This document shows, one piece after another, positions 4,122 through 62,549 of a DNA stretch of 64,000 nucleotides. The notes beneath the pieces are model-generated. The model had not been told where the DNA came from. It ran no database searches and saw only the letters and a list, made by a program, of their open reading frames with translations. Numbering within the stretch: the first letter of the stretch is position 1; every line of letters starts with the position of its first letter. Position numbers and translations under genes: made by a program. Origin of the DNA: Candidatus Magasanikbacteria bacterium RIFOXYC2_FULL_42_28 (GTDB lineage: Bacteria; Patescibacteriota; Patescibacteriia; Magasanikbacterales; GWA2-37-8); contig MFQZ01000009.1 in NCBI GenBank assembly GCA_001784435.1, positions 11,324 to 75,323 of the forward strand, written 5' to 3'.

Positions 4122-5108
4122 TTAATCTTTTTTTGCTTCTGATTCAGATAGTTTTTCCCGCGCCCCTACTGCGTCAAATACCGGTTTTACATCCGGATCA
4201 TCTAAATCCATCCCTTCAATTTTACTGCGCACGATGGCGTTCCAAACATCAGTCTCACTCATTTTTAAATATTGGGCCATACCAACAATTACTTCATCCA
4301 AAAATTTTCTTTCCTTTTTATAACCATCATTAACCTCCAAAATATCCAGAACATCCTTAACCGTTTGGGGAGCATATGTTTCCCCATGGCAACGCAATAA
4401 ATACTTTTTCATTATGTCCCTAGTCAATCGTTCAGTAACAGCCTCATCAAACAATCTAAACCTCGAACTTGAAGAGCCCTGAGTTCTATCGTGTTCTGAA
4501 TAACCCCCTCTTGATTTACCCAAACGCACCGGCACCATACCATCTAACATATGTTCTATCACCCAAGCCGCCGCTCTTTTAACTATTGAATCAATCTTTT
4601 GTTCTTCTAAGAGATTATATGAAATAGCGTGAACTTTTTCGTGAATCATTGTATGTAAAACATTAGCAAACATCAAATTCTCATCAACAATCAAATGTCC
4701 TTTTGTTTTTTGCTTTTGACCGCCCTGAATCCAGGCCTTCGCAACCAAAAGCTTGGCATCCAAAAAAATTTTATTAGCGTGAGGGGAATAAAATCCATCA
4801 AAAGCGCTCCCACTTTCTTCCAGCTTTTTAAAATCTTCCACTACAACTTCGGCTTCGTTAAAATTTAATTTCTCTGGACTAACACCACTTTTCGCGCCAA
4901 TTTCTTCAAAAATATTTTGCAGTTCAACCATATTAACTCGTGACAAAAATTCCTCAACCGCTTTTGACCACACCTCAAATGAGCTCCTGTCTGATTTTTC
5001 AGTAAATAATCTTTCACGAACCGGCTCCTCTGCTTGGTCAAGCAAAGTTTGAAATCTTTCCGGTTGCATTGGCCGGCCACGAAAATCAATTATCTCTCTC
5101 GGACTCAT
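4122..5108 (-). CDS. Hypothetical protein with an HExxH zinc-metallopeptidase motif
   Basis: 328-aa ORF containing HTMIHEKVHAISYN. It ends 8 nt upstream of the AAA+ gene on the same strand. Confidence 0.45.
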   Translation of the reverse strand: MSPREIIDFRGRPMQPERFQTLLDQAEEPVRERLFTEKSDRSSFEVWSKAVEEFLSRVNMVELQNIFEEIGAKSGVSPEKLNFNEAEVVVEDFKKLEESGSAFDGFYSPHANKIFLDAKLLVAKAWIQGGQKQKTKGHLIVDENLMFANVLHTMIHEKVHAISYNLLEEQKIDSIVKRAAAWVIEHMLDGMVPVRLGKSRGGYSEHDRTQGSSSSRFRLFDEAVTERLTRDIMKKYLLRCHGETYAPQTVKDVLDILEVNDGYKKERKFLDEVIVGMAQYLKMSETDVWNAIVRSKIEGMDLDDPDVKPVFDAVGAREKLSESEAKKD

Positions 5109-5189
5109 AAATATAATAAATCAAAACAACATCACTATAATACCATATCTTGCCTTTTTCCACAAAATATGGTAAATTTACCGCAAAAT

Positions 5190-6440
5190 ATGCCATTTTT
5201 TAATTTACAACACACCGACAACCGCGCCCGCGCCGGCGTTCTCCATACTGCTCATGGCGATATTGCAACGCCTTGCTTTATGCCCGTCGGCACCCAAGCC
5301 ACTGTTAAAACTTTGGATTCTTTGGATTTGGAAAATTTAAACGCGCCAATAATTTTAGGAAATACTTACCACTTGCATTTGCGTCCGGGCGAAGATTTGA
5401 TTGACACGGCCGGTGGATTACATAAATTTATGAATTGGAAACGACCGATTTTGACTGACTCGGGTGGATTTCAAGTTTTTTCACTTGGTCTACAAAAGGA
5501 CACCAAATTGTCATTTCGAACCGAGCGTAGCGAGCGTGAGAAATCTCCATCCGGTAAACAATACAATAATGGAGATCCCTCGCTTGACGCTCGGGATGAC
5601 AGCAAGAACGGCAACGAAAAACTCGTAAAAATCGACGACGACGGCGTTACCTTCCGCTCGCACATTGACGGCTCTACCCATCGCTTTACCCCCGAATCCG
5701 CCATTGAAACTCAACACAAACTCGGCGCCGATATAATCATGGCTTTTGACGAATGCACACCTGATCGGGCTTCGCCTGGCTACGCCCGACAAGCCATGGA
5801 ACGAACACATCTTTGGGCCGAGCGCTGCATTACTGAACACAAAAAAGAAACTAACCGCCACGGCTACCCCCAATTTTTATTTGGCATAATCCAAGGCGCC
5901 AACCATCAGGACTTACGCGAAGAATCTGCGAAATTTATTTGCGCGCAAGATTTTGACGGCATCGCGGTCGGCGGTGAATCTATCGGCTACAATATGGAAG
6001 CCACTGACGAAATTTTAAAATGGGTGCACCCGTATTTACCAACTAATAAACCACATTACGCAATGGGGATGGGGCTTGATCCAGCTGATTTACTCGTCGC
6101 GGTTGAAAATGGCATTGATATGTTTGATTGCGTCGCGCCGACACGATTGGCTCGGCATGGAATGATATTTACAAAAACAAAAGATAAAAGTGGTAAACAT
6201 AGAATGAATATAAAAAACAGTAGTTTTGCTACTGATTTTAGTCCGATTGAGCTGGATTGCACTTGTCACACCTGCCAAAATTACACGCGCGCGTATATCC
6301 ATCATTTATTCGCGGCCGAGGAGATGACCGCCATGCGCCTGACATCCATTCACAATTTACATTTTATGGTAGATTTGATGAAACAAACACGCGAGGCAAT
6401 TTTAAATAATAATTTTGCGGAATTTAAGAAAAATTTCTAA
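5190..6440 (+). CDS. tgt: Queuine tRNA-ribosyltransferase with a ~30-aa repeat-derived insertion
   Basis: MPFFNLQHTDNRARAGVLHTAHGDIATPCFMPVGTQATVK, ILTDSGGFQVFSL, and a C-terminal zinc site CTCHTCQNYTRAYIHHLF. The start is chosen by N-terminal similarity to Tgt (M-x-F-x-L...GRAR). Confidence 0.85.
   Translation: MPFFNLQHTDNRARAGVLHTAHGDIATPCFMPVGTQATVKTLDSLDLENLNAPIILGNTYHLHLRPGEDLIDTAGGLHKFMNWKRPILTDSGGFQVFSLGLQKDTKLSFRTERSEREKSPSGKQYNNGDPSLDARDDSKNGNEKLVKIDDDGVTFRSHIDGSTHRFTPESAIETQHKLGADIIMAFDECTPDRASPGYARQAMERTHLWAERCITEHKKETNRHGYPQFLFGIIQGANHQDLREESAKFICAQDFDGIAVGGESIGYNMEATDEILKWVHPYLPTNKPHYAMGMGLDPADLLVAVENGIDMFDCVAPTRLARHGMIFTKTKDKSGKHRMNIKNSSFATDFSPIELDCTCHTCQNYTRAYIHHLFAAEEMTAMRLTSIHNLHFMVDLMKQTREAILNNNFAEFKKNF
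5508..5596 (+). mobile_element. RPE-like palindromic repeat (family 1), complete copy inserted in-frame in tgt
   Basis: The copy reads TTGTCATTTCGAACCGAGCGTAGCGAGCG...GAGAAATCTCCATCC...AATGGAGATCCCTCGCTTGACGCTCGGGATGACA. Both hairpin ends are present, and it translates as KLSFRTERSEREKSPSGKQYNNGDPSLDARDDS. Confidence 0.6.
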
Positions 6441-6466
6441 GTTTGATTACACAAGCGTAATCAAAC
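6441..6466. repeat. Perfect palindrome GTTTGATTAC-ACAAGC-GTAATCAAAC (family 3), immediately after the tgt stop
   Basis: 10-6-10 inverted repeat. An identical copy lies at 7180-7205 and variants at 7294-7320, 46963-46988 and 47037-47060. Confidence 0.6.
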
Positions 6467-6580
6467 TGGTGGTTTCGCTCGCCACACAACTTTATCCCAG
6501 AAAGACACTCTTGGCCGTTCGGCCTAGGTTACGCTTTCTGAAATAAAGTTGCGCGTCGAGCTCTATGGTGCATAAAACAA

Positions 6581-7048
6581 ATGAATATGAATATAAACTT
6601 AATCTGTCTAGGCAAACCCAAAGAATCCTACTGGCGCGAGGCCGAGGCCGAATACTTAAAACGGCTTTCTTCAACGTGCAAAATCACCATTCGCGAGCTA
6701 AAAGAGAGGAGTTTTAGCGAAAAAGATGACCCGACCACGATTAAACTACAAGAAGCCGAACTAATTAAAAACGAACTAAAAAATACCAAAACCGGCCCAA
6801 TTTTGGTGCTTTCAGAAAATGGCCAACAATTTTCTTCAACAAAATTTGCCGAAATATTCAAAAATTCCGCTAATTTTACACTAATTATCGGTGGACCGCT
6901 GGGATTAGATGAATCAATTATTAAACTGGCGGACAAAGTAATTTCACTGTCTCCCCTAACTTTTACCCACCAAATGGCGCGAGTGGTGCTGTGGGAGCAG
7001 GTTTATCGGGCGCAGATGATAAATAGCGGGCGAAGATATCATTATTGA
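6581..7048 (+). CDS. rlmH: 23S rRNA (pseudouridine1915-N3)-methyltransferase, SPOUT family
   Basis: 155 aa. IIGGPLGLDESII...SLSPLTFTHQMARVVLWEQVYRA matches the RlmH/YbeA C-terminus. Confidence 0.8.
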   Translation: MNMNINLICLGKPKESYWREAEAEYLKRLSSTCKITIRELKERSFSEKDDPTTIKLQEAELIKNELKNTKTGPILVLSENGQQFSSTKFAEIFKNSANFTLIIGGPLGLDESIIKLADKVISLSPLTFTHQMARVVLWEQVYRAQMINSGRRYHY

Positions 7049-7055
7049 CGAGCGA

Positions 7056-7176
7056 AATGTCAAATTTCCAATTTCCAATGTCAAACCAAATCCAAATTTC
7101 AAATAACAAATACCGAATTTGACATTTTTACTTTGACATTGATTGGAAATTGGAAATTTGGATTTTGAAATTATCA
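7056..7176 (+). repeat. Long palindromic AATTTCCAATTTCCAATGTCAAA...TTTGACATTGGAAATTTGGATTTTGAAATT element (family 2)
   Basis: ~120 bp imperfect hairpin starting 8 nt after the rlmH stop. Four other copies occur at 12119, 19341, 43964 and 62441. Confidence 0.7.
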
Positions 7177-7179
7177 CAA

Positions 7180-7205
7180 GTTTGATTACACAAGCGTAAT
7201 CAAAC
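7180..7205. repeat. Family 3 palindrome GTTTGATTACACAAGCGTAATCAAAC
   Basis: Identical to 6441-6466. It brackets the rlmH and family 2 element segment. Confidence 0.6.
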
Positions 7206-7247
7206 TGTGGATAACTCTGGGTATAAGTCGCCTTTTCTGTGGATAAC
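7206..7247. promoter_or_regulatory. Two perfect DnaA boxes (TGTGGATAA, the reverse complement of TTATCCACA)
   Basis: Boxes at 7206-7214 and 7239-7247, 33 bp apart, followed by an AT-rich stretch at 7260-7380. Confidence 0.5.
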
Positions 7248-7395
7248 ACTTCGCTAATTTTAGCCAAAAAATATTTTCGGCAATAAAAAACTAAATTTGT
7301 ATACACAAGCGTATACAAATTTTTTGATATTTTAAACACTTTTAATCAATAATTTGGCTAATATATAACAAAAACTGCTCGCCTGCCCCACCCCC

Positions 7396-9180: not shown

Positions 9181-9204
9181 ATACCTTTTAATTTCCAAAT
9201 CCAC

Positions 9205-9304
9205 TTGTCATTCCGACAACGAAGGAGGAATCTCTATCCCGTTGGCTATTGCAGGCCAAATGGAGATCCCTCGTCGGATGCGAATCCTCACTCGGGATGA
9301 CAAA
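9205..9304 (+). mobile_element. RPE-like palindromic repeat (family 1), intergenic copy
   Basis: TTGTCATTCCGACAACGAAGGAGGAATCTCTATCCC...CAAATGGAGATCCCTCGTCGGATGCGAATCCTCACTCGGGATGACAA. Confidence 0.65.
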
Positions 9305-10857: not shown

Positions 10858-10870
10858 ATAAAATTTCAAA

Positions 10871-10969
10871 TTGTCATTTCGACGACGAAGGAGAAATCTC
10901 TATCCCAATCGATTACCAATGGAGATCCCTCGTCCCGACTAAGTCGGGAGTCCTCGCTCGGGATGACAA
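10871..10969 (+). mobile_element. RPE-like palindromic repeat (family 1), the fullest copy
   Basis: TTGTCATTTCGACGACGAAGGAGAAATCTCTATCCCAATCGATTACCAATGGAGATCCCTCGTCCCGACTAAGTCGGGAGTCCTCGCTCGGGATGACAA, 13 nt after the comM stop. Confidence 0.7.
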
Positions 10970-12036: not shown

Positions 12037-12118
12037 ATACCGGTACCCCTGATTTGCTAACTGAATAGTATAGCACAAATTGGCATTTTTGTCAAGATGA
12101 GGTATAATATCCCTGAAA

Positions 12119-12228
12119 TGACAAATGTCAAATTTCCAATTTCCAATCAAATCCAAATTTCCAATATCAAATTAGACATTTTGATTTTGACATTGATTTG
12201 ACATTGGAAATTTGGATTTTGAAATTAT
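12119..12228 (+). repeat. Family 2 long palindromic element
   Basis: TGACAAATGTCAAATTTCCAATTTCCAATCAAATCCAAATTTCC...TTTGACATTGGAAATTTGGATTTTGAAATTATCAC. It lies in the divergent intergenic region and ends 6 nt before the pbp start. Confidence 0.7.
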
Positions 12229-19340: not shown

Positions 19341-19452
19341 AATGTCAAATTTCCAATTTCCAATGTCAAATCAAATCCAAAGCTCAAATTACGAATTTGA
19401 CATTTTGATTTTGACATTGATTTGACATTGGAAATTTGGATTTTGAAATTAA
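19341..19452 (+). repeat. Family 2 long palindromic element
   Basis: AATGTCAAATTTCCAATTTCCAATGTCAAATCAAATCCAAAGCTCAAATTACGAATTTGACATTTTGATTTTGACATTGATTTGACATTGGAAATTTGGATTTTGAAATT. It starts 2 nt after the rnpA stop and ends 1 nt before the yidD ATG. Confidence 0.7.
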
Positions 19453-22262: not shown

Positions 22263-22305
22263 TTTGTCATTTGTCATCCCGAGCGCAGCCGAGGGATCCC
22301 TTAAA
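22263..22305 (+). mobile_element. Family 1 repeat, solo half-copy (TTGTCATCCCGAGCGCAGCCGAGGGATCCCTTAAAC)
   Basis: It matches the left arm of the 22610-22712 copy. Confidence 0.5.
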
Positions 22306-22591
22306 CCCATTCTGCGCTTAAATCTTTCCAATGCGGATTGATTTGTTTAATTAAAAATTCTTTTTTGTCTCGACGCCAACTCTTTAACTGTTTCTCTCGG
22401 GTTATCGCCGTGTTGATATCTTGATAGTGTTCATAAAAAACTAGTCTGCCAACATCATATTTTTTTGTAAATCCTTCAACTAATTTTTGTTTATGTTCAG
22501 AAAGTCGTTTTTCTAAATTATTTGTAACGCCGGTGTATAGCGTGCCACTATCACTTGCCAATATGTAAACATAATAATTGTGCTGTTTCAT
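22301..22591 (-). CDS. GIY-YIG nuclease-domain protein (UPF0213-like)
   Basis: YYVYILASDSGTLYTGVTNNLEKRLSEHK is the GIY-YIG core. The start is taken at MKQHNYYVYIL. Confidence 0.65.
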   Translation of the reverse strand: MKQHNYYVYILASDSGTLYTGVTNNLEKRLSEHKQKLVEGFTKKYDVGRLVFYEHYQDINTAITREKQLKSWRRDKKEFLIKQINPHWKDLSAEWV

Positions 22592-22609
22592 AGATTTGTA
22601 AATGTGATC

Positions 22610-22712
22610 GTCGTTTGTCATTCCGAGCGTAGCCGAGGAATCCCTTAAACTTATTATTGTACAAATACTATCTGTAAGGGATCCCTCCGCTCGCTAAGGC
22701 TCGGTCGGGATG
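22610..22712 (+). mobile_element. Family 1 repeat (variant subtype with both arms)
   Basis: TTGTCATTCCGAGCGTAGCCGAGGAATCCCTTAAAC...TAAGGGATCCCTCCGCTCGCTAAGGCTCGGTCGGGATGACAAG. Confidence 0.6.
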
Positions 22713-22720
22713 ACAAGCGA

Positions 22721-36187: not shown

Positions 36188-38905
36188 ATGAAGAAACTTG
36201 TTATTATAGATGGGAACGCAATAATACATAGGGCCTATCACGCCATTCCGCCCATGAACACCAAAAACGGGATGATGGTCAATGCGGTGTATGGGTTTAC
36301 TTCCATGTTGTTGCGCGTTTGGAAAGATTTAAAGCCGACACATATTGCCGTCACTTTTGATATGCGCGGTCCGACTTTTCGGCATGAAAAATTTAAGGAA
36401 TACAAAGCCACGCGCGTGAAAGCGGATCAGGAATTGTATGATCAGATTCCTTTGGTGCACAATGTTGTTCGTGCTTTTAATATTCCGATTTATGAAAAGG
36501 CCGGTTATGAGGCCGACGATGTGATTGGCACGGTCGCTCGCATGGTAGAAAATAAAAAAGAGGTTGAGACGTATATTGTGACGGGTGATAAAGATACTCT
36601 ACAGTTGATTGAGCCAGGGGTGAAAGTTTTTACCTTGCGTAAAGGGATGAGTGATACGGTAATTTATGATGCCGAGGGTGTAAAAGAAAAATTTGGATTT
36701 TTACCGGATAAAATGGTGGATTACAAAGCGCTGGCCGGTGATGCGTCGGATAATATTCCGGGGGTGCCGGGGGTGGGAGAGAAGACGGCGACAGATTTGA
36801 TTCAGAAGTTTGGGGGGATTGATGAGATTTATGATAATATCAAAAATCAAAAATCAAATATCAAAGATATTAAGGCGGGTGTCTTGAAAAAATTGATTGA
36901 CGGCGAAGAGTCGGCGCGGATGAGTTTTGAACTTGCGACGATTGACCGCAATGTTCCGGGGGTGGATTTTAAGTTGGAAGATTGCGTGGCAAAAGAATTT
37001 GACCGCGAGAAAGTGGTTAAGATTTTTCAGGAGTTGGAGTTTATGTCGTTGTTGAAGCGTTTACCCGGCGAAGCATTAGCGAAGACGGGGTTGCCGGGGG
37101 CGAGTGGGGATGGAGATCCCTCGCTTGACACTCGGGATGACAAACAAAAAAAAGTCCGAGCGAAATTTAAAGTTGATGAAATAAAGACAAAAGATGAAGT
37201 TGAGAAATTAGTTGAGCAGATTCGTAAAACAAAATCATTTGCCTGCCGTGAGGCCACGGCTGGACGTGAAGTTTATAATTCAGAATTGTTTGGTGTGGCG
37301 GTTATTGTTTCTGGCGCCGGATATTTTATTAGTGAAAAATTATTAAAAGAATTTTTGCCGGTATTTGAATTTTCGGATTGTGAATTCGTTGGTCATGATT
37401 TAAAACAGTTAATCAAAATTTTAAAACTGCAGGGCGTGGAAATAAAAAATAAATTGTTTGACACGATGATCGCGTCGTATCTGCTGGAACCGGGCAGTCG
37501 GGCGCATGACAGCGCCAGTATTGTTTTGAAAGTGTTAGGCCAAGAATTACCAGCCGGTGCCGGGCAGAATAGTTTGTTTGGGGCGGATATGCTTGCGGTA
37601 ACACAAGAATTATACCAACTATCTTTGGCGGCCGAAAAATTAAAAAAAGAATTAGTCGCGATTAGCGATTTTGGTTTAATGGAAAAAATAGAGATGCCAC
37701 TTTTGCCGGTCCTCGCGCAAATGGAATTAAACGGTATTGCCGTGGATTTAAAATTACTACAAAAATTATCCGAACAAGTGACGGCGGAAATTAAAACCGT
37801 GAGCGCGACTATTTTTAAATTGAGTGGAACGGAATTTAATATCTCGTCGCCGACACAATTGCGCGAAGTGCTGTTTGAAAAAATGGAAATTCCAGTGGAA
37901 GGAATTAAAAAAGGCAAAACCGGTTTGTCCACTTCTGCCGAACAGTTAGAAAAATTGCGCGGTCAACACCTAATCATTGAACATATTGAAAATTATCGCG
38001 AATTGGAAAAATTGCGCAATACCTATATTGATGTTTTGCCGACTTTGATAAATAAAAAGACCGGTCGGATTCACACCACTTTTAATCAGGCGGTCGCGGC
38101 GACTGGGCGCCTGTCATCGTCTGATCCAAATTTACAAAATATTCCCATTCGCACGGAGTTGGGGCGCAAGATCCGCAAGGCCTTTGTGGCCGAAGATGGC
38201 AATGTGCTTATTTCCGCCGATTATTCGCAAATTGAATTGCGCGTGGTGGCATCACTCGCCGAGGATAAAAAAATGATGGAAATTTTTGAGGCTGGTTTGG
38301 ATATTCACGCGGCGACAGCAGCGGCGATAAATCATGTGGATTTAAAAGATGTTACCAAGGACATGCGTCGCGCGGCCAAGGAAGTAAATTTTGGCGTGTT
38401 GTATGGCATGGGCGCATATGGCTTGGCTTGGCGGGCCGATATTCCCCAGTGGCAAGCCAAAGATTTTATTGATAAATATTTTAGTGAATTTAGTGGTGTG
38501 AAAAAATATTTAGACGCGACTTTGGAATTTACCAAAAAAGAGGGATACTGCGAAACACTGTTTGGTCGGCGCCGGTATATTCCGGAATTAAACGCCAGCA
38601 ACCACCAATTGCGGATGGCCGGCGAACGGATGGCGATTAATCATCCGATTCAGGGGACGGCCGCGGATTTGATTAAGATGGCGATGATAGAAATATCAAA
38701 ATGTAAATATCAAAATGAAAAATTATTGAGCGACGATGTGCGAATGATATTACAAGTGCACGACGAATTGGTGTTTGAAGTAAAAAAAGAATTGGCTGAT
38801 GAAGTCGGTAAAAAGGTAAAAGAAATTATGGAGGGTGTGGCCAAATTGCGCGTGCCGATTGTGGTGGAGGTGAATGTTTCTAAAAGTTGGGGGGAGATGA
38901 AATAA
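36188..38905 (+). CDS. polA: DNA polymerase I (5'-3' exonuclease, 3'-5' exo-like and polymerase domains)
   Basis: 905 aa. The polymerase motifs are RRAAKEVNFGVLYGM (motif B) and QVHDELVFEV (motif C). The N-terminal FEN-like domain is present. Confidence 0.9.
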   Translation: MKKLVIIDGNAIIHRAYHAIPPMNTKNGMMVNAVYGFTSMLLRVWKDLKPTHIAVTFDMRGPTFRHEKFKEYKATRVKADQELYDQIPLVHNVVRAFNIPIYEKAGYEADDVIGTVARMVENKKEVETYIVTGDKDTLQLIEPGVKVFTLRKGMSDTVIYDAEGVKEKFGFLPDKMVDYKALAGDASDNIPGVPGVGEKTATDLIQKFGGIDEIYDNIKNQKSNIKDIKAGVLKKLIDGEESARMSFELATIDRNVPGVDFKLEDCVAKEFDREKVVKIFQELEFMSLLKRLPGEALAKTGLPGASGDGDPSLDTRDDKQKKVRAKFKVDEIKTKDEVEKLVEQIRKTKSFACREATAGREVYNSELFGVAVIVSGAGYFISEKLLKEFLPVFEFSDCEFVGHDLKQLIKILKLQGVEIKNKLFDTMIASYLLEPGSRAHDSASIVLKVLGQELPAGAGQNSLFGADMLAVTQELYQLSLAAEKLKKELVAISDFGLMEKIEMPLLPVLAQMELNGIAVDLKLLQKLSEQVTAEIKTVSATIFKLSGTEFNISSPTQLREVLFEKMEIPVEGIKKGKTGLSTSAEQLEKLRGQHLIIEHIENYRELEKLRNTYIDVLPTLINKKTGRIHTTFNQAVAATGRLSSSDPNLQNIPIRTELGRKIRKAFVAEDGNVLISADYSQIELRVVASLAEDKKMMEIFEAGLDIHAATAAAINHVDLKDVTKDMRRAAKEVNFGVLYGMGAYGLAWRADIPQWQAKDFIDKYFSEFSGVKKYLDATLEFTKKEGYCETLFGRRRYIPELNASNHQLRMAGERMAINHPIQGTAADLIKMAMIEISKCKYQNEKLLSDDVRMILQVHDELVFEVKKELADEVGKKVKEIMEGVAKLRVPIVVEVNVSKSWGEMK
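37109..37144 (+). mobile_element. Family 1 repeat half-copy embedded in-frame in polA
   Basis: ATGGAGATCCCTCGCTTGACACTCGGGATGACAA translates as GDGDPSLDTRDDK, in the linker between the 5'-exo and 3'-exo-like domains. Confidence 0.55.
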
Positions 38906-38908
38906 ATT

Positions 38909-39046
38909 ATGATTATCTATCTATCCGGCCCCGACACCTTTCGGAGTCGGCAATATTTAAAAGAACAAGTGGAGAAGCTTAAAATTGCCCACTACTACGA
39001 TGGATACGAGAAAATTTTAGAAGATATTTTGGCTAATATATAATAA
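38909..39046 (+). pseudogene. Truncated duplicate of the holA 5' end (45-aa remnant)
   Basis: MIIYLSGPDTFRSRQYLKEQVEKLKIA matches MIIFIHGPDTFRSRQYLKEQVEKFKIA of holA at 43001. The two are ~90% identical at the DNA level over 83 bp, and the copy starts 3 nt after the polA stop. Confidence 0.6.
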
Positions 39047-42956: not shown

Positions 42957-43000
42957 AGTGTTTTGCATAACATTGGGGAACATATTATAATGAGCTTACT

Positions 43001-43963
43001 ATGATTATATTTATACACGGCCCCGACACCTTTCGGAGCCGGCAATATTTAAAAGAACAAGTGGAGAAATTTAAAATTGCCCGCGATCCACAGGGGTATA
43101 ATGTTGTGTTTGCGGACGCGGTGAGCGACGAGCCGGGGAAAATTTTAGGGGAGATTTCCAGCGCGCCGTTTTTGGCAGATAAGAGAATGATTGTTGTAGA
43201 AAATATTTTGGCATGCAAGGATAAGGATTTTATGGCTACGCTCATTGAAATGGTAAAAAATAATAAAGTGCCGGAAAGTAATGTTGTTTTGTTTTGGCAA
43301 GGCGAAGATAAATCAAAAATAAAAGAAGTGGATGAATTGGATAAATTATTGAAAAAAGAAAAATACGCGAAAGAATTTGATATGTTAACGGGCGCGCAAT
43401 TGTCCGTTTGGATAAAACAGGAATTTGTTAAATCAAAAGCGACTGTCAGTATGCCGGCGTTAAATTTTTTGGCGCAGAACGCGGGTGGTGATATGTGGCG
43501 ATTGTCGTCTTTAATCGCGCAATTGTCGGCCTATGCCACTGGGCGCGAGGTCGGCGTGGAAGGTGTAAAATTATTTTTGGATGAAAAGGTTGATGATAAT
43601 GTTTTTAATATGGTGGAAGCGGTCGTGTCGGGCAATCGTAAGCAGGCGTATAAATTATTAACCGAGCAAAGGCGGTTAGGCGAAGAGGACGGAAAATTAT
43701 TTGGTTTGATATTGTGGCAATTTCGGATTTTGGTGAATTTAAGGTCGTTGTTTGAAACTGAAGATAATTTAACGGCTGATCAAATGGCTAAACAACTTGG
43801 TTTGCATCCGTTTGTCGTGAAAAAGAATTTGGCACTGGTAAAACGAATGAGCTCGGCACGCTTAAAAGAAATTTACGAGATGCTTTTGGATATTGATAAA
43901 AAAATAAAAACCGGGCGGGGGGACTTGGGGTTGTTGGTTGATGTGCTGGTGGGACGCTTATGA
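43001..43963 (+). CDS. holA: DNA polymerase III delta subunit
   Basis: 320 aa with the HolA N-terminal fold IFIHGPDTF...FLADKRMIVVEN and a C-terminal helical domain. Confidence 0.75.
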   Translation: MIIFIHGPDTFRSRQYLKEQVEKFKIARDPQGYNVVFADAVSDEPGKILGEISSAPFLADKRMIVVENILACKDKDFMATLIEMVKNNKVPESNVVLFWQGEDKSKIKEVDELDKLLKKEKYAKEFDMLTGAQLSVWIKQEFVKSKATVSMPALNFLAQNAGGDMWRLSSLIAQLSAYATGREVGVEGVKLFLDEKVDDNVFNMVEAVVSGNRKQAYKLLTEQRRLGEEDGKLFGLILWQFRILVNLRSLFETEDNLTADQMAKQLGLHPFVVKKNLALVKRMSSARLKEIYEMLLDIDKKIKTGRGDLGLLVDVLVGRL

Positions 43964-44066
43964 ATGTCAAATTTCCAATTTCCAATGTCAAATCAAAGCC
44001 AAAATGACAAATTTGACATTTTTATTTTGACATTGATTGGAAATTGGATATTTGGATTTTGAAATT
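43964..44066 (+). repeat. Family 2 long palindromic element
   Basis: It starts immediately after the holA TGA as AATGTCAAATTTCCAATTTCCAATGTCAAATCAAAGCC...TTTGACATTGATTGGAAATTGGATATTTGGATTTTGAAATT. Confidence 0.7.
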
Positions 44067-44101
44067 AGTAAAGTCAGACACATACAGAAGCTTGAGTTTA
44101 A

Positions 44102-46948: not shown

Positions 46949-46962
46949 GTTGAAAAGTGGAT

Positions 46963-47060
46963 GTTTGTATACGCTAGCGTAATCAAACTTTAAAAATGCT
47001 CAATTTTGGGCGTTTTTTTGATATATTTAAAATTTGATTACGCTAGTGTAATCAAACGCG
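46963..47060. repeat. Two family 3 palindromes (GTTTGTATACGCTAGCGTAATCAAAC at 46963-46988; TTTGATTACGCTAGTGTAATCAAA at 47037-47060)
   Basis: The same arms as the 6441/7180 copies with a different 6-7 nt centre. Confidence 0.5.
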
Positions 47061-50539: not shown

Positions 50540-51418
50540 ATGGTCATGAAAAAAATTTTCTTAATTATTTTACTGGGGATTTTGGCACCGACTTTGGGGG
50601 CGCGCGCCTTTTCTTTAAGTCCATTGAAATATATTTTTTCTGTGGAACGTGGTGAAAGCACGGTGATTACAGTAACTCTAAATAATTATGAATCCGGGGT
50701 GATTGCCTTGGAGCCGGCGGTGGTGGGGATGAAAACCGACAAAGCCGGTCGGCCGGTTTATGATAGCACAGCCGAGGTAATTGGTTGGGTAAAGTCGGAT
50801 TGGAATTTTATAAATTTAAAAGAAGGCCAAGGCCAAAAAGTTCATTTTTTAGTTACCGTTCCAGCTGGCGCGTATCCGGGTGATTATTATTTAGGTGTCG
50901 GCGCGAAACGCGTTGCCGGTGTCGGCGCGGTAAGTATCGGTGAGCAACTTTTGACAGTAGTGAATTTGAAAGTGGCTGGAACTGCGCGCGAGGATTTGGT
51001 GGTGAAAAAATTTGAAGTTAGTGGAAAATTTTTTGAAAAAAATAAAAAATTTAATTTGGAAATTGAAAATAAAGGCAATGTGGAAATGCCGATAAGCGCG
51101 GTTTTAAAAATAAGCGATTGGCGTGGGCGGATAATTTTGGAACAGCCGGTTGCGGTGGGAAATAAAATTTTGCCATTAGCATCGCGAGTAGCATCAACCG
51201 ATTTTGTCATTGCGAGGAGCGAAGCGACGCGGCAATCTATCGTGCCGGGTTTGTATCAAGTGGATTTAACAGTTGATTACGGTTTGACTAAACAAAAAAT
51301 TACCGCGGTGGAAAATTTTTGGTATGTGCCAACTTGGACGTTGGGTGTGTTGGTGGGGGTGATTATATTGGTGGGATTAATTATTTTTATTAAAAATAGG
51401 AAAAATTTTGGGTATTAA
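50540..51418 (+). CDS. DUF916/DUF3324-like cell-surface protein with a C-terminal TM anchor
   Basis: A signal peptide is followed by FSLSPLKYIFSVERGESTVITVTLNNYESGVIALEPAV (a DUF916-like start). The C-terminal TM ends in the basic tail KNRKNFGY. Confidence 0.4.
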   Translation: MVMKKIFLIILLGILAPTLGARAFSLSPLKYIFSVERGESTVITVTLNNYESGVIALEPAVVGMKTDKAGRPVYDSTAEVIGWVKSDWNFINLKEGQGQKVHFLVTVPAGAYPGDYYLGVGAKRVAGVGAVSIGEQLLTVVNLKVAGTAREDLVVKKFEVSGKFFEKNKKFNLEIENKGNVEMPISAVLKISDWRGRIILEQPVAVGNKILPLASRVASTDFVIARSEATRQSIVPGLYQVDLTVDYGLTKQKITAVENFWYVPTWTLGVLVGVIILVGLIIFIKNRKNFGY

Positions 51419-54602: not shown

Positions 54603-57600
54603 GTGATTATGGCAATTATAGGATTGAAAAATTTATTAAAATTATCAAGCCGAATTTTTGTAATATCCGCCATATTTTTGTCCGCAATTTTTAGTTTATG
54701 GTTATGGCAAAATAGCGCGGTCGCGGCGATCGCGCCATCAGTAATTACTTACCAAGGTAAAGTATTAGTAAGCGGTTCACCAGCGTCATCTACTTTATCA
54801 ATGAAGTTTGTTTTGTATGACTCTTTAACTGGTGGCACTGCGCTCTATACTGCTTCCGGCACTTTGCCAACCACGAGCACAATTAGTATTACTCCTTCCA
54901 GTGGTATATTTAGTGTTGATCTTGGTGGTAGTGGTACAAACACGATTGATCCAACTATTTTTCAAAATAACAGTAGTGTATATTTAGAAGTAACCATCGG
55001 CAGTCAAACCCTTACCCCCCGAAAACAAATCACTGCCGCTCCTTATGCTTTCAACGCTAAATATCTAGATGGTCTCGCCACTTCATCATTCGCCAAACTT
55101 GGATCCAATGAAACGGTTACCGGCACTTGGACCTTTTCGGCAACCACGACTATGGTCACGACGACGGTGAGTGGGAGGTTAGGTATTGGGACGACCACGC
55201 CAGATCAAGCGTTGACAGTGGTGGGGAGTATTAGTAATCCGGTGAATGGGAATTCTGGGATAACAGAAATTGCGACTCTATCAACAGGTAACGACCCGTT
55301 TGCGATATTTGTCTCTGGTCGGTATGCTTATGTGGCCAATTCTGCTTCTAGCACCATGACTATAATTGATATTTCTAAACCAACCGTGCCGGTGCAGGTA
55401 GCAACAGTTTCTGTCGGAAATTCACCGCGTTCCGTATTTGTTTCTGGTCGTTATGCGTATGTTGGAAATTATGGACATGGCACTATATCCATCGTGGACG
55501 TGTCTAATCCATTTTCTCCTGTTGTTGTTGCTACCCAGCAGGATTTGCCGGGTATCCCATCTTCTATTTTTATCTCCGGTCGGTATTTGTATACCACCTT
55601 ACAAGGCCAAGATATCTTGGCGGTTGTTGATATATCAGATCCGCTGACTCCGGTTTTGGCTGCGGCTGTCACTGTCGGTGATTACCCACAATCAGTTTTT
55701 GTCTCCGGTCGTTATGCTTATGTGGCGAATAGAGCATCCGGCACCATTTCTGTGGTTGACATATCTAATCCTTTGTCTCCAGTCCAAATTGCCACGACCT
55801 CTGTTGGTGTTTGGCCTAGTTCTATAGCTGTCTCTGGTCGTTATGCTTATGTGGCCCATGATTCTGATTTGTTTATTTCTGTAGTGGACGTGTCTAACCC
55901 CGCTATCCCAGTTCAAGTGGCTACCACCTCTGTCGGTTTTGTACAGTCGTCCGTATTTGTTTCCGGTCGTTATGCGTATTTTAGCACGGGTATTACTGCA
56001 AATGATTTAGGCAATCTTTCGGTTGTGGATATTTTAAATCCGTTGGTACCGGTTTTAGTGGCAACTACGCCGGTTGGAAAAAATCCACAATCAGTTTTTG
56101 TCTCCGGTCGTTATGCTTATGTGGCTAATGCGGGGCCTCTTGCGGGCAATGGTGGGGAAAATACTATTTCCATCATCGATCTCTCCGGCGCCGAATTTTC
56201 CACCCTAATCGCCCACTCCGCCGAAGTCGGCCAAATCCAATCGCGCAATGACATCATCGCTCAAGGCATAGTTGGCGCCAACAGTTTACAAATCGGCAGT
56301 GGTGGTATCCTCTCTAACGGGCCCATCAGTATCACCGCCACCGATACCTATTCTTACTTCGGCGGTGGCATTACCGCCACCGGCACAGTAACCACTACTA
56401 ATTTGGCGGTCATCGGCAATGCCACTTTTGGTGGCACATTGTCGCTGGGCAATACCGACATCACCGGCAATCTTACTGTCTCCGGCAACGCTACTACCAC
56501 TGGTAATCAAGTAATATCCGGCACACTTAATATTTCCGGCACTTCCACTCTCGTTACCACCACTGCCACTGCCTTAACTGTCACTGGCACATCAACTTTA
56601 ACAAATATTTCATCCACTGGCATTTCCAATCTAGGCACTTTAAACGTTTCTGGCAGTACCATTCTTTCTGGCACATTAAATGTAACCGGCACATCAACTT
56701 TGGCCACTACCACCATTTCCAAATTAACCATTAGCAGTCAAGGTATTATTATTTCCAGTAGCACTCCGGTCGTTACTTCTTCCACTTTGTATAATGTTGG
56801 TGACACCCTTTATTGGAACGGCAACGCCTTATCAACCTCTACTGGTAGCGGTTTGCCGTCTAGTATTGATGGCCAAATTTTATTCTCCGCTGGTTCTACT
56901 TGGACCGCGACTTCGGCGATTAGTATTGTGAGTACAACTGGTAATGTTGGTATCGGTACCACCAACCCAGGTACTTTGCTCACAGTCCACAACACCAATA
57001 TCGCTTCGGCCACTTCTTCCACTTTAAAACAATCATATTTATCAGTTGACCAAATGGCCTTGTCACAATTAGAAGGTGGAGCATATTTTGGCCGAACAAA
57101 AATAAAAAATAATAATTGGGTAGTTCAAGTAGCGGATAATTTTGTTTTGAGTGAGGCACCGTTATCTATGAAGGGTTCGGCTGGTTCGGCTGATGGGGAA
57201 ATTTTAGCAATAGTTTTAGATGGCAATCAAATCGGGCTGTTTTCCGGTTTTGATGCTGATGTTCAATTGGTGGCTAGCGTTCAAAATTGGGAGGATATCG
57301 CGATGTCCGTTGATGGTAAAATTATGTCGGCTGTGATTGATAATGGCGGGATTCATCGTTCCATTGATTATGGCGCCACTTGGGCGACCTCATCCGCTTT
57401 GACAAAAAATTGGACAGGTATTGCAATGTCGGCCGATGGTAAATATCAAACGGCCGTGGCCACCGGTGATAGCGTTTATATTTCTGCTGATTTTGGTGTT
57501 ACCTGGATCGCCAAAGACAGCAGTCGCGCTTGGACCGGTGTGGCCATGTCATCGGACGGTAAATTACAAATTGCCACTGTTTCAAGCACCGGCAATATTT

Positions 57601-60600
57601 ATCTTTCGGTTGATTATGGTAGTACTTGGGTTGCTAAAGCCAGTGCCAATGATTGGGACAGCGTGGTTATGTCGGCTGATGGGCGGGTAGTATTGGCCGG
57701 AGTGAATAGTGGCAATCTTTATCTTTCCACTAATTACGGCTATTCTTGGACAACCACTACCGCTCCGACCGGAGCTTGGAGCGCGGTCGGTATGGATGGC
57801 GATGGTAAATATCAAGTGGCCGGAATTTCGGGTGGGGCGTTATATATATCTGGTGATTATGGTTCCACTTGGGCCACTTCAACGTCAGCTACGAGTGGGG
57901 TTTGGTATGATATTGACGTTACGGCCGATGGCGCTACGGTGGTTGCAACGGACAATGTCGCGGGGTATTATATCAATCAGGCCGATCAGTTTAGTTTAAA
58001 AAATATTGCGATTGGCGCGACTACGGTTGCCAGCGGTTTGGCGCTTGATGTTACCGGTGTTGGTTCTTTTTCCGGTAATTTATCGGTTGGTGGCGGTTTA
58101 ACTGTTACCGGTAATGCTACCAGCACTAATTTTATTGCGACCGGCAATGTTGGAATTGGCACCACAACACTTACCGAAAGATTAAATGTTAAAGGTAATA
58201 TTAATTTGGTCGGCAATCTTAATTTAGCAACCGGTACGATAAAATATTCCGGCAGTAATTTATTGTCAATTACCGGTGGCGCGTCATCAGTTGCTTTAGG
58301 GGTAAATGCCGGGCACAGTGCAACCGGCACAGGTAATGTGTTTGTTGGCAGTGGAGCCGGCCAAAACAATGATTCTGGTTATAACAATACTTTTATTGGT
58401 CTTAATGCCGGGCAGACTAATACCTCATCGGCCGGGAACACCTTTATCGGGGCGACCGCTGGCGCTAGCAACACATCTGGTAGTAGTAATGTCTTTGTTG
58501 GTTCGGGGGCGGGGGGGCTTAACACTACCGGTCTGGGTAATTCGTTTTTTGGTGCTCAAGTGGCCAGTGCCAATACCAGCGGTAGCATTAATTCGTTTTT
58601 TGGAGCCTACGCCGGCATTGCTAATACTGAAGGCGGCAATAATTCGTTTTTTGGAGCATACGCCGGCACTGCCAACATTACCGGTAATTATAATGTATTT
58701 ATTGGCGAATACGCCGGATCAAGTGTTACTTCCGGGTATTCCAATACTTTTTTGGGCGCGCGCTCTGGTTATTTGAATATTATTGGGGCCGGTAATGTGT
58801 TTTTAGGCAATCAAGCCGGTTATAACGAGACAGGCTCTAATAAATTATATATTGCCAATTCCAACACAGATTCGCCTTTGATTTATGGTGATTTTAGCGC
58901 GAGTGCCTTGACGATAAATGGAAGTTTAACGGTGTCATCAACTAACACTTCTACTTTTAATAGTAGCATTAATATCACCAGCGGATGTTTCGCGGTCGGT
59001 GGAAATTGTTTGTCAGACGGCACTACTCTTAATACCACCGTGCTTAATGTTAGTAGTACTCTTACCACCAACAGCACCACAATTTTGGTTGGTAATAATT
59101 ATTTTAATTTTACCGGGGCAAATATTGGTGGAAATGATTATGCGTCTTTATCTATCGGTAATGGCGCATCTTCCACTAACGGAGCGGTAGCAATTTGGGG
59201 TGATACCACGGTTGGGCCAAGATTTATGTTAGTGGCGACCACATCCGCGCCTTCTGCCACTGTTGGCGATAGTCCGATTTTTGTCGTTGATATGACTAGT
59301 GGTTATGCGCGCGTGGATATTGGCAGTACCGGTAACGCCAAATCAGGATTGTTAAGATTATATGATAACGCCGGTGTGAATAAAATTTATTTGAGCGCCA
59401 GTTCTACCGACGGCGATTCGTTTGTGTTGGATAATTTTTTAGTGGGCGCGAATTCCGAGAGTATTGCCAACACTGGTTTTGTTTTAACTAATAACAACAG
59501 TTTATACACCGAAGGCGATTTGGGTGTTAATGGTAATATTTATACCGACGGGGCAATTTATATTTCTGGCACTTCTACTTTGGCTATTACCACTATTACC
59601 GCCTTAACTGTATCTGGAGATGTAACTCTATCTACCTCCACTATCTTTTTAAATAATGTTGGCAGCTTCACCAGCTCAACCGCTTTTATTTTTAATGTTG
59701 CTAATTTTTCTTTGTCTGCCGCTGATAGATATATTTTGTCTTTACGTTCTAATAACGCACCAGTATTTTCCGTCTCCGCCAATGGTGATGTTAATACAGT
59801 AGGTAGTTTGCATGCGTTTTCAGCCACTGTTGGGGCCGATGGTAATCCCGGTGACTTGGCCGAACGCGTTGATATTGCCGTTGATGATATCGCCGAAGCT
59901 GGCGATGTGGTCGTGGTTGATCCAAATAATATTGATACCTATCGCCGTAGTAGTGAGGCATATAGTCAATCCGTGGCTGGAGTAATTTCTACCGCTCCAA
60001 CCATCGTAGTTGGTGATGGTAAAACTGATTACACCGCTGTCATGGCTATGATTGGTCGCGTGCCAGTTAAAATTTCCAGTGAAAACGGCGCGATTAAGCG
60101 TGGTGATTTATTAGTGTCGGCATCGCTTCCCGGTTACGCGATGAAATATAATCCGGAAGATGATAATGGTTTGAAGATGGTGGGTATTGTGGGTGTGGCT
60201 TTGGATAGTTTTGCCGATGTCGGCGGAACCGGGAAAATTATGGCTTTAATCCGCACCGGTTGGGTCAATTCGCGTGGGCAAACTATCAATGATATTAAGA
60301 GTGACTTAGAAACTTTGGCGCAGAGTCAAGGTGTGAATATTAATTCTAATCCAAGTGATTTGACAGTGGAGCCAAGTGGCGGTAATTTGGTGTATAGCAG
60401 TGGTAATTTGAATTTACATGGTGGCAGTTTGTTGGGCGTAGCGGCGATTTCCGGCTTGAATGGTCGGTGGGAAATAAACGCTGATGGTTGGTTTATCACG
60501 CGCGTTGACACCACGAGTGGGCAAAAAGAAATGTATGGTTTGCAATCACCGGCCGCGGAATTTGTATTTTCCAGCTCATCACAGTTGATGAATGGTGAAG

Positions 60601-61255: not shown

Positions 61256-62407
61256 ATGTCTTTTTCCATCGGGATTGTCGGATTGCCAAATGTCGGTAAA
61301 TCAACTTTATTTAATGCTTTGACGCGCAGTAAGCAAGCGGACGCTGCCAATTATCCTTTTTGCACTATTGATCCGAATGTGGGCGTAGTCGCGGTTCCGG
61401 ATGAGCGGTTAGCAAAGTTATCCGAAATTTCTAAATCAAAAAAAATTATCCCAACGGTGATTGAATTTGTGGATATTGCCGGTTTGGTAAAAGGCGCGAG
61501 CGAAGGCGAGGGTTTGGGTAATAAATTTTTATCACATATTCGCGAAGTGGACGCCATCGCGCAAGTAGTGCGCGCGTTTTCGGATAGTAATGTTATTCAT
61601 GTGAATAATAAAGTGGACCCAAAGAATGATAGCGAGGTGATTAATTTAGAATTGGCGTTGGCGGATTTACAAGTTGTTACCAAAAGATTAAGCACTGCCA
61701 AAAAAGATACCAAAGGTTCGGTGGCAAAAGACAAAGAAAAAGAAATTGAATTATTGACAAAAATTAATGCCCAGCTCGAGGCCGGCAAACCGGCGCGCGC
61801 GTTAGAATACAATGATGATGAAAAAATAATTTTAAAAAAATTACAGCTGTTGACAGCCAAACCGATGTTGTATGTGGTGAATACTGACGAAGGGGGCGGA
61901 ATTTCACCAATTGTTACTCCGACGACGAAGGAGGAATCTCTATCCCAATTGATTGCCAATGGAGATCCCTCGTCCCGACTAAGTCGGGAGTCCTCGCTCG
62001 GGATGACAACGCAAATAAACGTTTGTGCCAAGTTGGAAGCGGAATTGGCAGATTTGAGTGTGGAGGAAGCCAAAGAATATTTAAAAACTGCTGGCATTAC
62101 CGAAACCGGTTTGGATAAATTAGTTGTCGCCAGTTACAAATTATTGGATTTAATAACTTTTCTAACTTCGGGCGAACCGGAAACGCGCGCTTGGACGGTA
62201 AAAAATGGCGCGAGGGCCCCGGAAGCGGCCGGAGTCATTCACACGGATTTTATCAAAGGTTTTATTAAAGCCGATGTTTGTGACTGGCAAGATTTTGTTA
62301 CGCACCACGGTTGGTCAAAAATAAAAGAAACCGGAAAACTCCGATTAGAGGGAAAAGATTATGTCGTGAGAGATGGAGATGTTGTGTATTTCCATGTTAG
62401 TACCTGA
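61256..62407 (+). CDS. ychF: Ribosome-binding ATPase YchF (Obg family) with a repeat-derived insertion
   Basis: IGIVGLPNVGKSTLFNALT, NYPFCTIDPN and the C-terminal TGS domain (VVRDGDVVYFH). It is 383 aa, against ~363 aa typical for YchF. Confidence 0.85.
   Translation: MSFSIGIVGLPNVGKSTLFNALTRSKQADAANYPFCTIDPNVGVVAVPDERLAKLSEISKSKKIIPTVIEFVDIAGLVKGASEGEGLGNKFLSHIREVDAIAQVVRAFSDSNVIHVNNKVDPKNDSEVINLELALADLQVVTKRLSTAKKDTKGSVAKDKEKEIELLTKINAQLEAGKPARALEYNDDEKIILKKLQLLTAKPMLYVVNTDEGGGISPIVTPTTKEESLSQLIANGDPSSRLSRESSLGMTTQINVCAKLEAELADLSVEEAKEYLKTAGITETGLDKLVVASYKLLDLITFLTSGEPETRAWTVKNGARAPEAAGVIHTDFIKGFIKADVCDWQDFVTHHGWSKIKETGKLRLEGKDYVVRDGDVVYFHVST
61911..62009 (+). mobile_element. Family 1 repeat, full copy inserted in-frame in ychF
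   Basis: TTGTTACTCCGACGACGAAGGAGGAATCTCTATCCCAATTGATTGCCAATGGAGATCCCTCGTCCCGACTAAGTCGGGAGTCCTCGCTCGGGATGACAA is 96% identical to the 10871 copy and translates as IVTPTTKEESLSQLIANGDPSSRLSRESSLGMT. Confidence 0.65.
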
Positions 62408-62440
62408 TTATTCTTATGGAGTTAGAATAAGTATTAATAA

Positions 62441-62549
62441 TTTCAAAATCTAAATTTCCAATGTCAAATCAATGTCAAAATCTTAATGTCAAATTTAGTA
62501 TTTGAGCTTTGGATTTGATTTGACATTGGAAATTGGAAATTTGACATTT
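62441..62549 (+). repeat. Family 2 long palindromic element (variant)
   Basis: TTTCAAAATCTAAATTTCCAATGTCAAATCAATGTCAAAATC...GATTTGATTTGACATTGGAAATTGGAAATTTGACATTTCG, located between convergent ychF and the methyltransferase. Confidence 0.6.

Follow-up and report, generated by a model that had tools for sequence, protein, structure and literature searches.

Palindromic repeats that lie in frame within Rickettsia genes have been a curiosity since 2000 and, to our knowledge, no enzyme that mobilises them is known. These Rickettsia palindromic elements (RPEs) were reportedly described by Ogata et al. in 2000 and 2002. Here we describe a repeat of similar behaviour inside tgt, the gene for queuine/preQ1 tRNA-ribosyltransferase (Tgt), in a member of the Patescibacteria. 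The stretch of DNA that was analysed as a whole, called the window throughout, comprises 64,000 nucleotides of Candidatus Magasanikbacteria bacterium RIFOXYC2_FULL_42_28 (contig MFQZ01000009.1, positions 11,324 to 75,323).

Two described systems are close to this element. The first is formed by the repetitive extragenic palindromes (REPs) with a CGTC tag, which is often TGTC (CCTC is also accepted) and is joined to stems of 8–9 bp that start from AT, loops of 4–5 nt and a short tail (PMC3733652). They mostly occur as head-to-head dimers with the tags outside and spacers of 20–100 bp, and intragenic dimers encode 20–30 aa (PMC3733652). Neisseria dRS3 and Rickettsia conorii RPE-6 were both assigned to CGTC-1, and R. 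conorii RPE-4 to CGTC-4 (Di Nocera, De Gregorio, Rocco 2013, PMC3733652). That survey noted that CGTC REPs had no known dedicated transposase, and it reported no associated enzyme (PMC3733652). The second system is built around SsnA, a 94-aa single-domain GIY-YIG nuclease of Neisseria that binds NTS (CGTCATTCCCGCGMAVGCGGGAATCYRG), the neisserial form of these repeats, and cuts single-stranded DNA (ssDNA) just upstream of it (PMC11893778). SsnA homologues across phyla are flanked by 'Ssn-related motifs' (SRM; Chenal et al. 2025, PMC11893778), and in Neisseria NTS/SsnA modulates transformation (PMC11893778).

A palindromic element lies in frame within tgt

Alignment with the four other complete copies in the window placed the ends of the tgt element at TGTCAT...ATGACA, from 5509 to 5601 or, equivalently, from 5508 to 5600 when the start is read as (T)TGTCAT. 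The element measures 93 bp, equal to 31 codons. An earlier interpretation made from the nucleotide letters without database searches (the sequence-only reading) had given 5508-5596 and 89 bp; its start agrees with the copy alignment, its end falls 5 nt short, and a length of 89 bp is ruled out because it is incompatible with the reading frame. Its central proposal, a complete palindromic element in frame and stop-free inside tgt that adds about 30 aa, was confirmed by the intact 416-aa open reading frame (ORF), by hairpin statistics and by the other window copies. The peptide KLSFRTERSEREKSPSGKQYNNGDPSLDARDDS was found in the Tgt ORF with no stop codon. The 31-codon insert occupies residues 107-137, and the junctions with Tgt read DTK-LSFRTERSEREK at one side and DARDDSK-NGNEK at the other.

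As RNA, the element folds into a hairpin of -40.8 kcal/mol (z = -5.7), which none of 200 shuffled sequences equalled or bettered. The corresponding DNA hairpin reaches -23 to -24 kcal/mol on either strand (z about -5.4), and 10 occurrences of the terminal 13-mer were counted where 1.55 would be expected. Rfam at gathering thresholds returned four tRNAs only, with no match at the tgt element. The right arm forms a hairpin by itself, consisting of 5 bp, a tandem G.A and 2 bp closed by the 5-nt loop GTCAA, and it differs from the copy in polA by one mismatch. It fits the stem description of CGTC REPs (8-9 bp, A-T start, 4-5 nt loop), its stem AT-CCC-GA-GC / GC-GA-GGG-AT covering nine positions of which two are tandem G.A. 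The left arm carries an apparent 9-nt internal duplication, CGAGCGTAG/CGAGCGTGA (read by eye), and forms no stable hairpin by itself; 39 nt of it are invariant across the three insert-bearing genomes considered below. In our reading it is the decayed partner of the right arm.

Tgt retains its catalytic core

The 416-aa Tgt product gave a Pfam TGT match of 3.1e-145 that is broken into two stretches. In a PDB search the Z. mobilis TGT structure scored 1.6e-99, with Tgt residues 4-100 and 145-416 aligned to chain residues 16-112 and 114-377, so that about 43 Tgt residues have no counterpart. The breaks in the Pfam and PDB alignments coincide exactly with the segment flagged as the insert. The frame runs on into the zinc site, as had been claimed in the sequence-only reading: the ligands C357/C359/C362/H388 lie downstream of the insert in the same open frame and are invariant in an alignment of 48 orthologues, as are the catalytic aspartates D90, D187 and D300.

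With the insert removed, tgt of the window compared with either of two related loci (L001 or L002) gave a ratio of nonsynonymous to synonymous substitution rates (dN/dS) of 0.11-0.13 at a dS of 0.52-0.59, which shows that the gene has long been under purifying selection since the insertion. Purifying selection alone is shown by these values; that the enzyme is 'essential', as it had been called earlier, is not established. In E. coli, tgt is dispensable and mutants are viable.

An AlphaFold2 model built on the 48-sequence alignment had a mean predicted local distance difference test (pLDDT) score of 86, with values below 50 only at residues 95-104 and 106-139. Superposed with Foldseek on Z. 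mobilis TGT, the model gave a target-normalised template modelling (TM) score of 0.94 and a root-mean-square deviation of 1.8 A. The model thus predicts an intact Tgt fold from which the insert departs as a disordered excursion. The surface loop that had been expected is in keeping with this low-confidence prediction and with the natural length variation described below. The insert starts only 17 residues past the catalytic Asp (D90 of the DSGG motif). By the logic of the TIM barrel, the site is on the catalytic face. Because the insert is so near the catalytic Asp, it could affect tRNA binding, and we do not claim that it is remote from the tRNA site. A literature search on disorder of the equivalent loop in Z. 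mobilis TGT found nothing. Judged from its conserved residues and substitution pattern, Tgt is still functional despite the insert.

The insertion is lineage-specific

To place the insertion we used the 120 best Tgt homologues (about 59-100% identical, mostly from Patescibacteria or Magasanikbacteria) and measured loop length from DSGGFQVFS to GVxF. This loop is located after the catalytic-Asp segment DSGGFQVFSLG and before a three-stranded sheet (LVKIDDDGVTF). Its length ranges naturally from 15 to 64 aa and is 19-22 aa in 65 of the 120 orthologues. The window Tgt has 53 aa, and subtraction of the 31 codons leaves 22 aa. Only P0002 and P0003, which are 89-90% identical to the window protein and come from other samples, carry this segment in an identical position. 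It is missing from the homologues that rank next (68% identical) and from more distant ones. The orthologue alignment therefore marks out a dispersed palindromic repeat that was inserted in frame in one lineage; the sequence-only reading had pointed out that an ancestral loop should appear in repeat-free relatives, and in these the segment is absent.

Three independent assemblies from different samples (window, L001 and L002) contain the insert, which argues that it is no assembly artefact. L002 has two indels near or in the insert, each of 3 nt, as expected if the insert is translated. A scan of genome contigs with Tgt yielded mostly distant phyla, L003 and L004 being the only Patescibacteria.

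Related elements recur in the same Tgt loop

Loops of 40 aa or more were present in 25 of the 120 orthologues. Peptides derived from a tag plus its complement were recognised in 16 of the 120 and fall into two reading frames: VIPS or VILS ... (R/Q)ND(N/K) in one, and xSSR or LSFR ... (R)ND(K) or ARDD in the other. At the DNA level, four orthologues (L083-L086) have TGTCATC...AATGACAA hairpins at slightly shifted positions. When the proteins were clustered by their loop-free core, the nearest neighbours of insert carriers often had no insert (P0034 vs P0052, 95%; P0108 vs P0066, 91%; P0089 vs P0037, 91%; P0081 vs P0044, 91%). Frame, position and sequence together indicate that related elements entered this one loop in other Patescibacteria on at least eight independent occasions. 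At least three further insertions in the same loop come from other palindromic families, of the PPL...KGG type (P0018, P0022 and P0059). The insertion context is A-rich only, and a T usually stands just before the tag. The recurrence may reflect target preference or mere tolerance.

Two additional observations were made on these loci. The Tgt loops of P0086 and P0117, like those of P0018, P0022 and P0059, hold other-family insertions, and peptides such as SPYPPLKKGG...PPLFKDGSGGG occur in this group. At locus L084, in another Patescibacteria genome, a uvrD-like helicase gene (4549-6753) contains a tagged hairpin (5329-5400); the gene product is 734 aa long, where relatives have 674-722 aa. Repair genes are reportedly favoured by intragenic REPs, and this copy is reminiscent of that bias.

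The repeat family is dispersed in the window

Seven units of the window and five from related loci, 12 in all, went into an nhmmer profile, which detected 13 units in the window. Six of the 13 lie inside coding sequences, two each in tgt and ychF and one each in polA and a hypothetical ORF. Five complete dimers were found, all with their tags outside, and in the tgt element, as in all other window copies, the outer ends carry the TGTC tag. The features are collected in the table.

Table. Features of the window bearing on the tgt element, its repeat family and the neighbouring nuclease gene (positions are those of the window; a full stop stands where no strand is assigned)
Feature	Position	Strand	Evidence
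tgt, queuine/preQ1 tRNA-ribosyltransferase, 416 aa, host of the insert	5190..6440	+	Pfam, PDB alignment, AlphaFold2/Foldseek, dN/dS
Head-to-head dimer of TGTC-tagged REP/SRM hairpins, 93 bp, translated as 31 aa (about LSFRTERSEREKSPSGKQYNNGDPSLDARDD)	5509..5601	.	Hairpin statistics, alignment to other copies
Left arm, degenerate REP unit	5509..5548	+	nhmmer 8.7 bits, E 0.24
Spacer / apical loop of the long hairpin, ~21 nt	5549..5569	.	Hypervariable among window, L001 and L002
Right arm, canonical unit TGTC-AT-CCC-GA-GC-(GTCAA)-GC-GA-GGG-AT-CTCCA	5570..5601	-	nhmmer 27.3 bits, E 2.7e-07
Intergenic hairpin dimer	9203..9303	.	Copy alignment, nhmmer
Intergenic hairpin dimer directly past comM/yifB-like ORF	10869..10969	.	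Copy alignment, nhmmer
Single unit directly downstream of ssnA-like gene; 87% match, as a direct repeat, to the arm at 22610	22266..22311	+	Repeat listing, nhmmer
ssnA-like gene for a GIY-YIG nuclease with a single domain (96 aa); may act on the repeats in trans as their candidate partner	22301..22591	-	Pfam GIY-YIG 3.2e-17
Complete hairpin dimer directly upstream of ssnA-like gene	22610..22714	.	Copy alignment, nhmmer
Single canonical unit, in frame, polA interdomain linker (ORF 36188..38905 +), peptide GDPSLDTRDDK	37111..37142	-	Copy alignment, nhmmer
Single unit of another subfamily (GTCATTGCGAGGAGCGAAGCGACGCGGCAATC), in frame in hypothetical ORF 50540..51418 (+), peptide VIARSEATRQS	51205..51240	+	nhmmer
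Hairpin dimer in frame inside ychF (ORF 61256..62407 +)	61909..62009	.	Copy alignment, nhmmer

The ychF element encodes ...ISPIVTPTTKEESLSQLIANGDPSSRLSRESSLGMTTQ... and appears to substitute in part for a native segment, the protein having 383 aa vs 363 for E. coli YchF, a net gain of 20 aa. The polA unit sits in the linker between the 5'-nuclease and the 3'-5' exonuclease domains; remnants upstream suggest that it is what remains of a decayed dimer. The hypothetical ORF encodes a 292-aa hypothetical secreted or membrane protein. Tails read CTCCA(T) in the tgt and polA copies and in those at 9203 and 10869, and CCCTTA in the copies flanking the ssnA-like gene; the CGTC-REP consensus is CCA. 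The 15-mer TTGTCATCCCGAGCG was found in 81 stretches of viral contigs, a count for which there is no chance expectation and from which we draw nothing. A literature search with the exact arm sequences returned unrelated primers only.

Other repeats were noted in the window. A second palindromic family, AT-rich and about 111 nt long (AATGTCAAATTTCCAATTTCCAATGTCAAAT...), is found at 7049-7173, 12117-12227, 19341-19451, 43957-44067 and 62439-62549, and complementarity between arms of different copies reaches 93%. A 30-nt perfect palindrome, AAGTTTGATTACACAAGCGTAATCAAACTG, occurs at 6439-6468 (at the tgt stop codon), 7178-7207, 7293-7322, 46961-46990 and 47030-47059. The next gene after tgt is also followed by it, in two identical copies, and these palindromes may be terminators or a third repeat family. 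A direct repeat of 83 nt, 90% identical over two copies 4.1 kb apart (38908-38990 and 43000-43082), may mark the starts of two paralogous genes; the 38908 copy stands directly past the polA stop (38905), resembles the 5' end of a coding sequence and begins TATGATTAT.... Tandem coding repeats at 55300-56170 and 58538-58717, with periods of 129 nt and 51 nt, likely belong to repeat-domain surface proteins.

An ssnA-like gene is bracketed by repeat units

The window contains a gene for a small GIY-YIG protein with repeat units on both sides (22266-22714), a full dimer upstream and a single unit downstream, giving a motif-gene-motif layout. In this gene and in the adjoining DUF167-like gene, the longest ORF begins within a repeat arm, and therefore the true starts are probably downstream (MKQHNYY... 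and MKLKIKV...). The protein is 100% identical to a Candidatus Magasanikbacteria protein and has GIY-YIG as its only Pfam domain. NCBIfam gave no informative family for it, and a PDB search returned only distant UPF0213 structures. When it was compared by tblastn with records filed as plasmids, two N. gonorrhoeae chromosomes matched, in an ORF of 94 aa with nine canonical NTS within 1 kb. The two proteins are 52% identical (BLASTP 1e-28), where E < 1e-10 was the published limit for an SsnA homologue. From the length and the NTS flanks of the gonococcal protein we infer that it is the SsnA orthologue.

Homologues of the window GIY-YIG protein were collected from 80 metagenomic loci, of which 68 had enough flank. 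GTCAY-type tags were present within 150 nt upstream in 39 of the 68 loci, and their reverse complement downstream in 39 of the 68. Both were present in 32 of the 68, often exactly complementary, over a background of 5% per comparable window. These flanks mirror the association between SsnA and its motif reported previously, 71%/42% (PMC11893778). At L086, the gene lies between a tagged arm and its inverted partner and is followed directly by a gene-less hairpin copy.

Proposed explanation and alternatives

We consider it probable that the following hold jointly: a repeat of the CGTC-REP/Ssn-related-motif family inserted into tgt, the gene was retained under purifying selection, and the same loop received such insertions repeatedly in Patescibacteria. 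The insert would have entered tgt before the three sampled genomes split (dS about 0.5). The ribosome would read through it, adding 31 hydrophilic, probably disordered residues to a naturally length-variable loop. Genic copies may persist because only in-frame, stop-free insertions in permissive loops would survive selection in a gene-dense genome. More tentatively, with the odds in our view somewhat against it, the SsnA-like GIY-YIG single-strand nuclease bracketed by the motif may spread or maintain the repeats. This step is suggested because the motif-gene-motif layout is the one reported for ssnA; the route would be ssDNA, analogous to REP/RAYT.

Several points weigh against this explanation. 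The left arm scores poorly as a repeat unit (8.7 bits). The published SRM pattern HGTCWYN(0-2)YYVSBRHN(0-5)WNVSBRGN(0-2)RNCYNB gave 0 matches in the window on both strands, because the stems have a tandem G.A in addition (the surplus GA of CCCGAGCG), and the window units would therefore be a variant beyond that pattern. Two comparisons of filled and empty DNA sites, with diverged flanks, revealed no target-site duplication or conserved target. Read-through of the insert is deduced from the preserved frame, and nuclease action on the window repeats, like an Ssn role in repeat mobility, is extrapolated from the layout. Finally, conservation of the arms exceeds what would be expected of a neutral passenger. 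Across the three insert-bearing genomes, variable sites make up 2 of 69 in the arms, 16 of the 24 columns between them (5548-5571, including a frame-keeping 3-nt indel) and 227 of 1158 (19.6%) in the rest of tgt. Ranked by length, the arms come third and fourth among the invariant runs of the gene, though they encode a dispensable peptide, and a view of the insert as tolerated junk leaves them unexplained.

This conservation would be accounted for if the intragenic repeat were kept as a cis-acting element, either as an Ssn site that restricts how far incoming ssDNA recombines at core genes or as an mRNA hairpin that modulates tgt translation. Conserved arms around a variable middle were also seen in the orthologue pairs P0055/P0074 and P0094/P0108, and the influence of NTS/SsnA on neisserial transformation (PMC11893778) offers a precedent. 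Gene conversion with other genomic copies, however, could preserve the uniformity of arms that have no function; elsewhere in tgt, catalytic segments contain invariant runs of 59 and 50 nt; the left arm is degenerate; and most close relatives thrive insert-free. We regard a cis-acting role as unlikely. We are equally sceptical of an extended version of the nuclease hypothesis, in which the GIY-YIG nuclease and the TGTC hairpins would form an active ssDNA mobile system, with the A-rich Tgt loop as a preferred target and the arms selected as nuclease sites (for example, policing incoming ssDNA recombination at core genes).

A classical MITE (miniature inverted-repeat transposable element), that is, a deletion derivative of a DDE-transposase insertion sequence moved in trans, would make the GIY-YIG association incidental. 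The terminal inverted repeats do start TG...CA, as in many DDE elements, and size and copy number are MITE-like. Yet the filled and empty sites gave no sign of the target-site duplication, the arms are tagged REP hairpins in their own right, what such arms enclose is a gene for a GIY-YIG nuclease and no transposase, and CGTC REPs as a class have no associated transposase (Di Nocera et al., PMC3733652). No transposase was noticed beside any window copy, in an annotation of the window that is not exhaustive. We think a MITE origin very improbable.

Chance or convergent resemblance of an ancestral Tgt loop, lost in the shorter orthologues, could draw on the natural range of loop lengths and is scarcely credible, given that the segment belongs to a dispersed repeat family (with a single mismatch to the copy in polA and a score of 27 bits against the profile of the units), is limited to three closely related genomes, has counterparts in other lineages that are distinct elements, slightly shifted in position and read in other frames, and shows no conserved homologous peptide across distant repeat-free lineages. 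Just as implausible is a decaying tgt pseudogene or an assembly chimera, for which only the foreign DNA inside the gene speaks and against which stand the intact ORF in three assemblies from different samples, the dN/dS, the full set of catalytic and zinc ligands and the confidently predicted core fold.

Significance and comparison with known systems

If the insertion history set out above is right, the same repeat superfamily shows the same behaviour as in Rickettsia in a distant genome-reduced phylum, and does so in the same window as a homologue of a motif-linked ssDNA nuclease. The many independent colonisations of one Tgt loop amount to an experiment, replicated by nature, on the absorption of selfish DNA by proteins. 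The window also offers a concrete candidate enzyme-substrate pair for Ssn movement or maintenance of repeats. Were the improbable active ssDNA system to prove true, the protein-coding palindromes of Rickettsia would owe their mobilisation or maintenance, for which a factor has long been missing, to this enzyme family. Annotation pipelines should recognise translated repeats, because these inflate and fragment domain hits in the proteomes of the candidate phyla radiation (CPR).

Compared with CGTC REPs, the tgt element has the TGTC tags facing outward, the AT stem start, the 5-nt loop and a spacer of about 21 nt. It differs in the conserved tandem G.A mismatch of the window stems and in a phylum outside the five listed for these repeats (PMC3733652). 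R. conorii has the highest intragenic CGTC-REP count in that survey, and the intragenic fraction of the window resembles it. NTS/SRM-SsnA is similar in combining GTCAT, a GC-rich hairpin and ATC, and in the motif-gene-motif arrangement around a single-domain GIY-YIG protein of about 95 aa. In contrast, 2% of the NTS of N. meningitidis are intragenic (PMC11893778) as opposed to 6 of the 13 window units, the window units escape the published SRM pattern, and the window nuclease is known from sequence alone. REPIN/RAYT resembles the present system in its inverted REP doublets that form long hairpins, its single-copy domesticated nuclease gene flanked by repeats and its presumed ssDNA mechanism; it uses a GTAG tag and an HUH tyrosine transposase, whereas the window has a TGTC tag and a GIY-YIG enzyme.

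The likeness to RPEs, especially RPE-4 and RPE-6, had been put forward in the sequence-only reading and proved tighter than an analogy. It rests on architecture and on the assignment of RPE-4 and RPE-6 to the CGTC-REP superfamily (PMC3733652), to which the arms of the tgt element also belong. In both cases dispersed palindromes lie in frame in unrelated housekeeping genes, add a short peptide and spare the protein; here, four unrelated genes of one 64-kb window (tgt, ychF, polA and the hypothetical ORF) contain in-frame palindromes within an intact ORF. Repair and replication genes are frequent hosts of RPEs, and polA, together with uvrD at L084, has that role here. The hosts differ, Patescibacteria as against Alphaproteobacteria; the window element is not an RPE by name, and RPE-1 is longer (about 150 bp). 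Recurrent insertion in one loop of one protein across many lineages was not met in the portions of the RPE literature that were available to us. A literature search for palindromic elements in CPR returned nothing relevant, and no report of the phenomenon in Patescibacteria was found. Relative to the accessible parts of the literature, the in-frame repeat of the Rickettsia type is known, and what is new is the phylum, the G.A-stem variant, the high intragenic fraction and the repeated colonisation of the Tgt loop.

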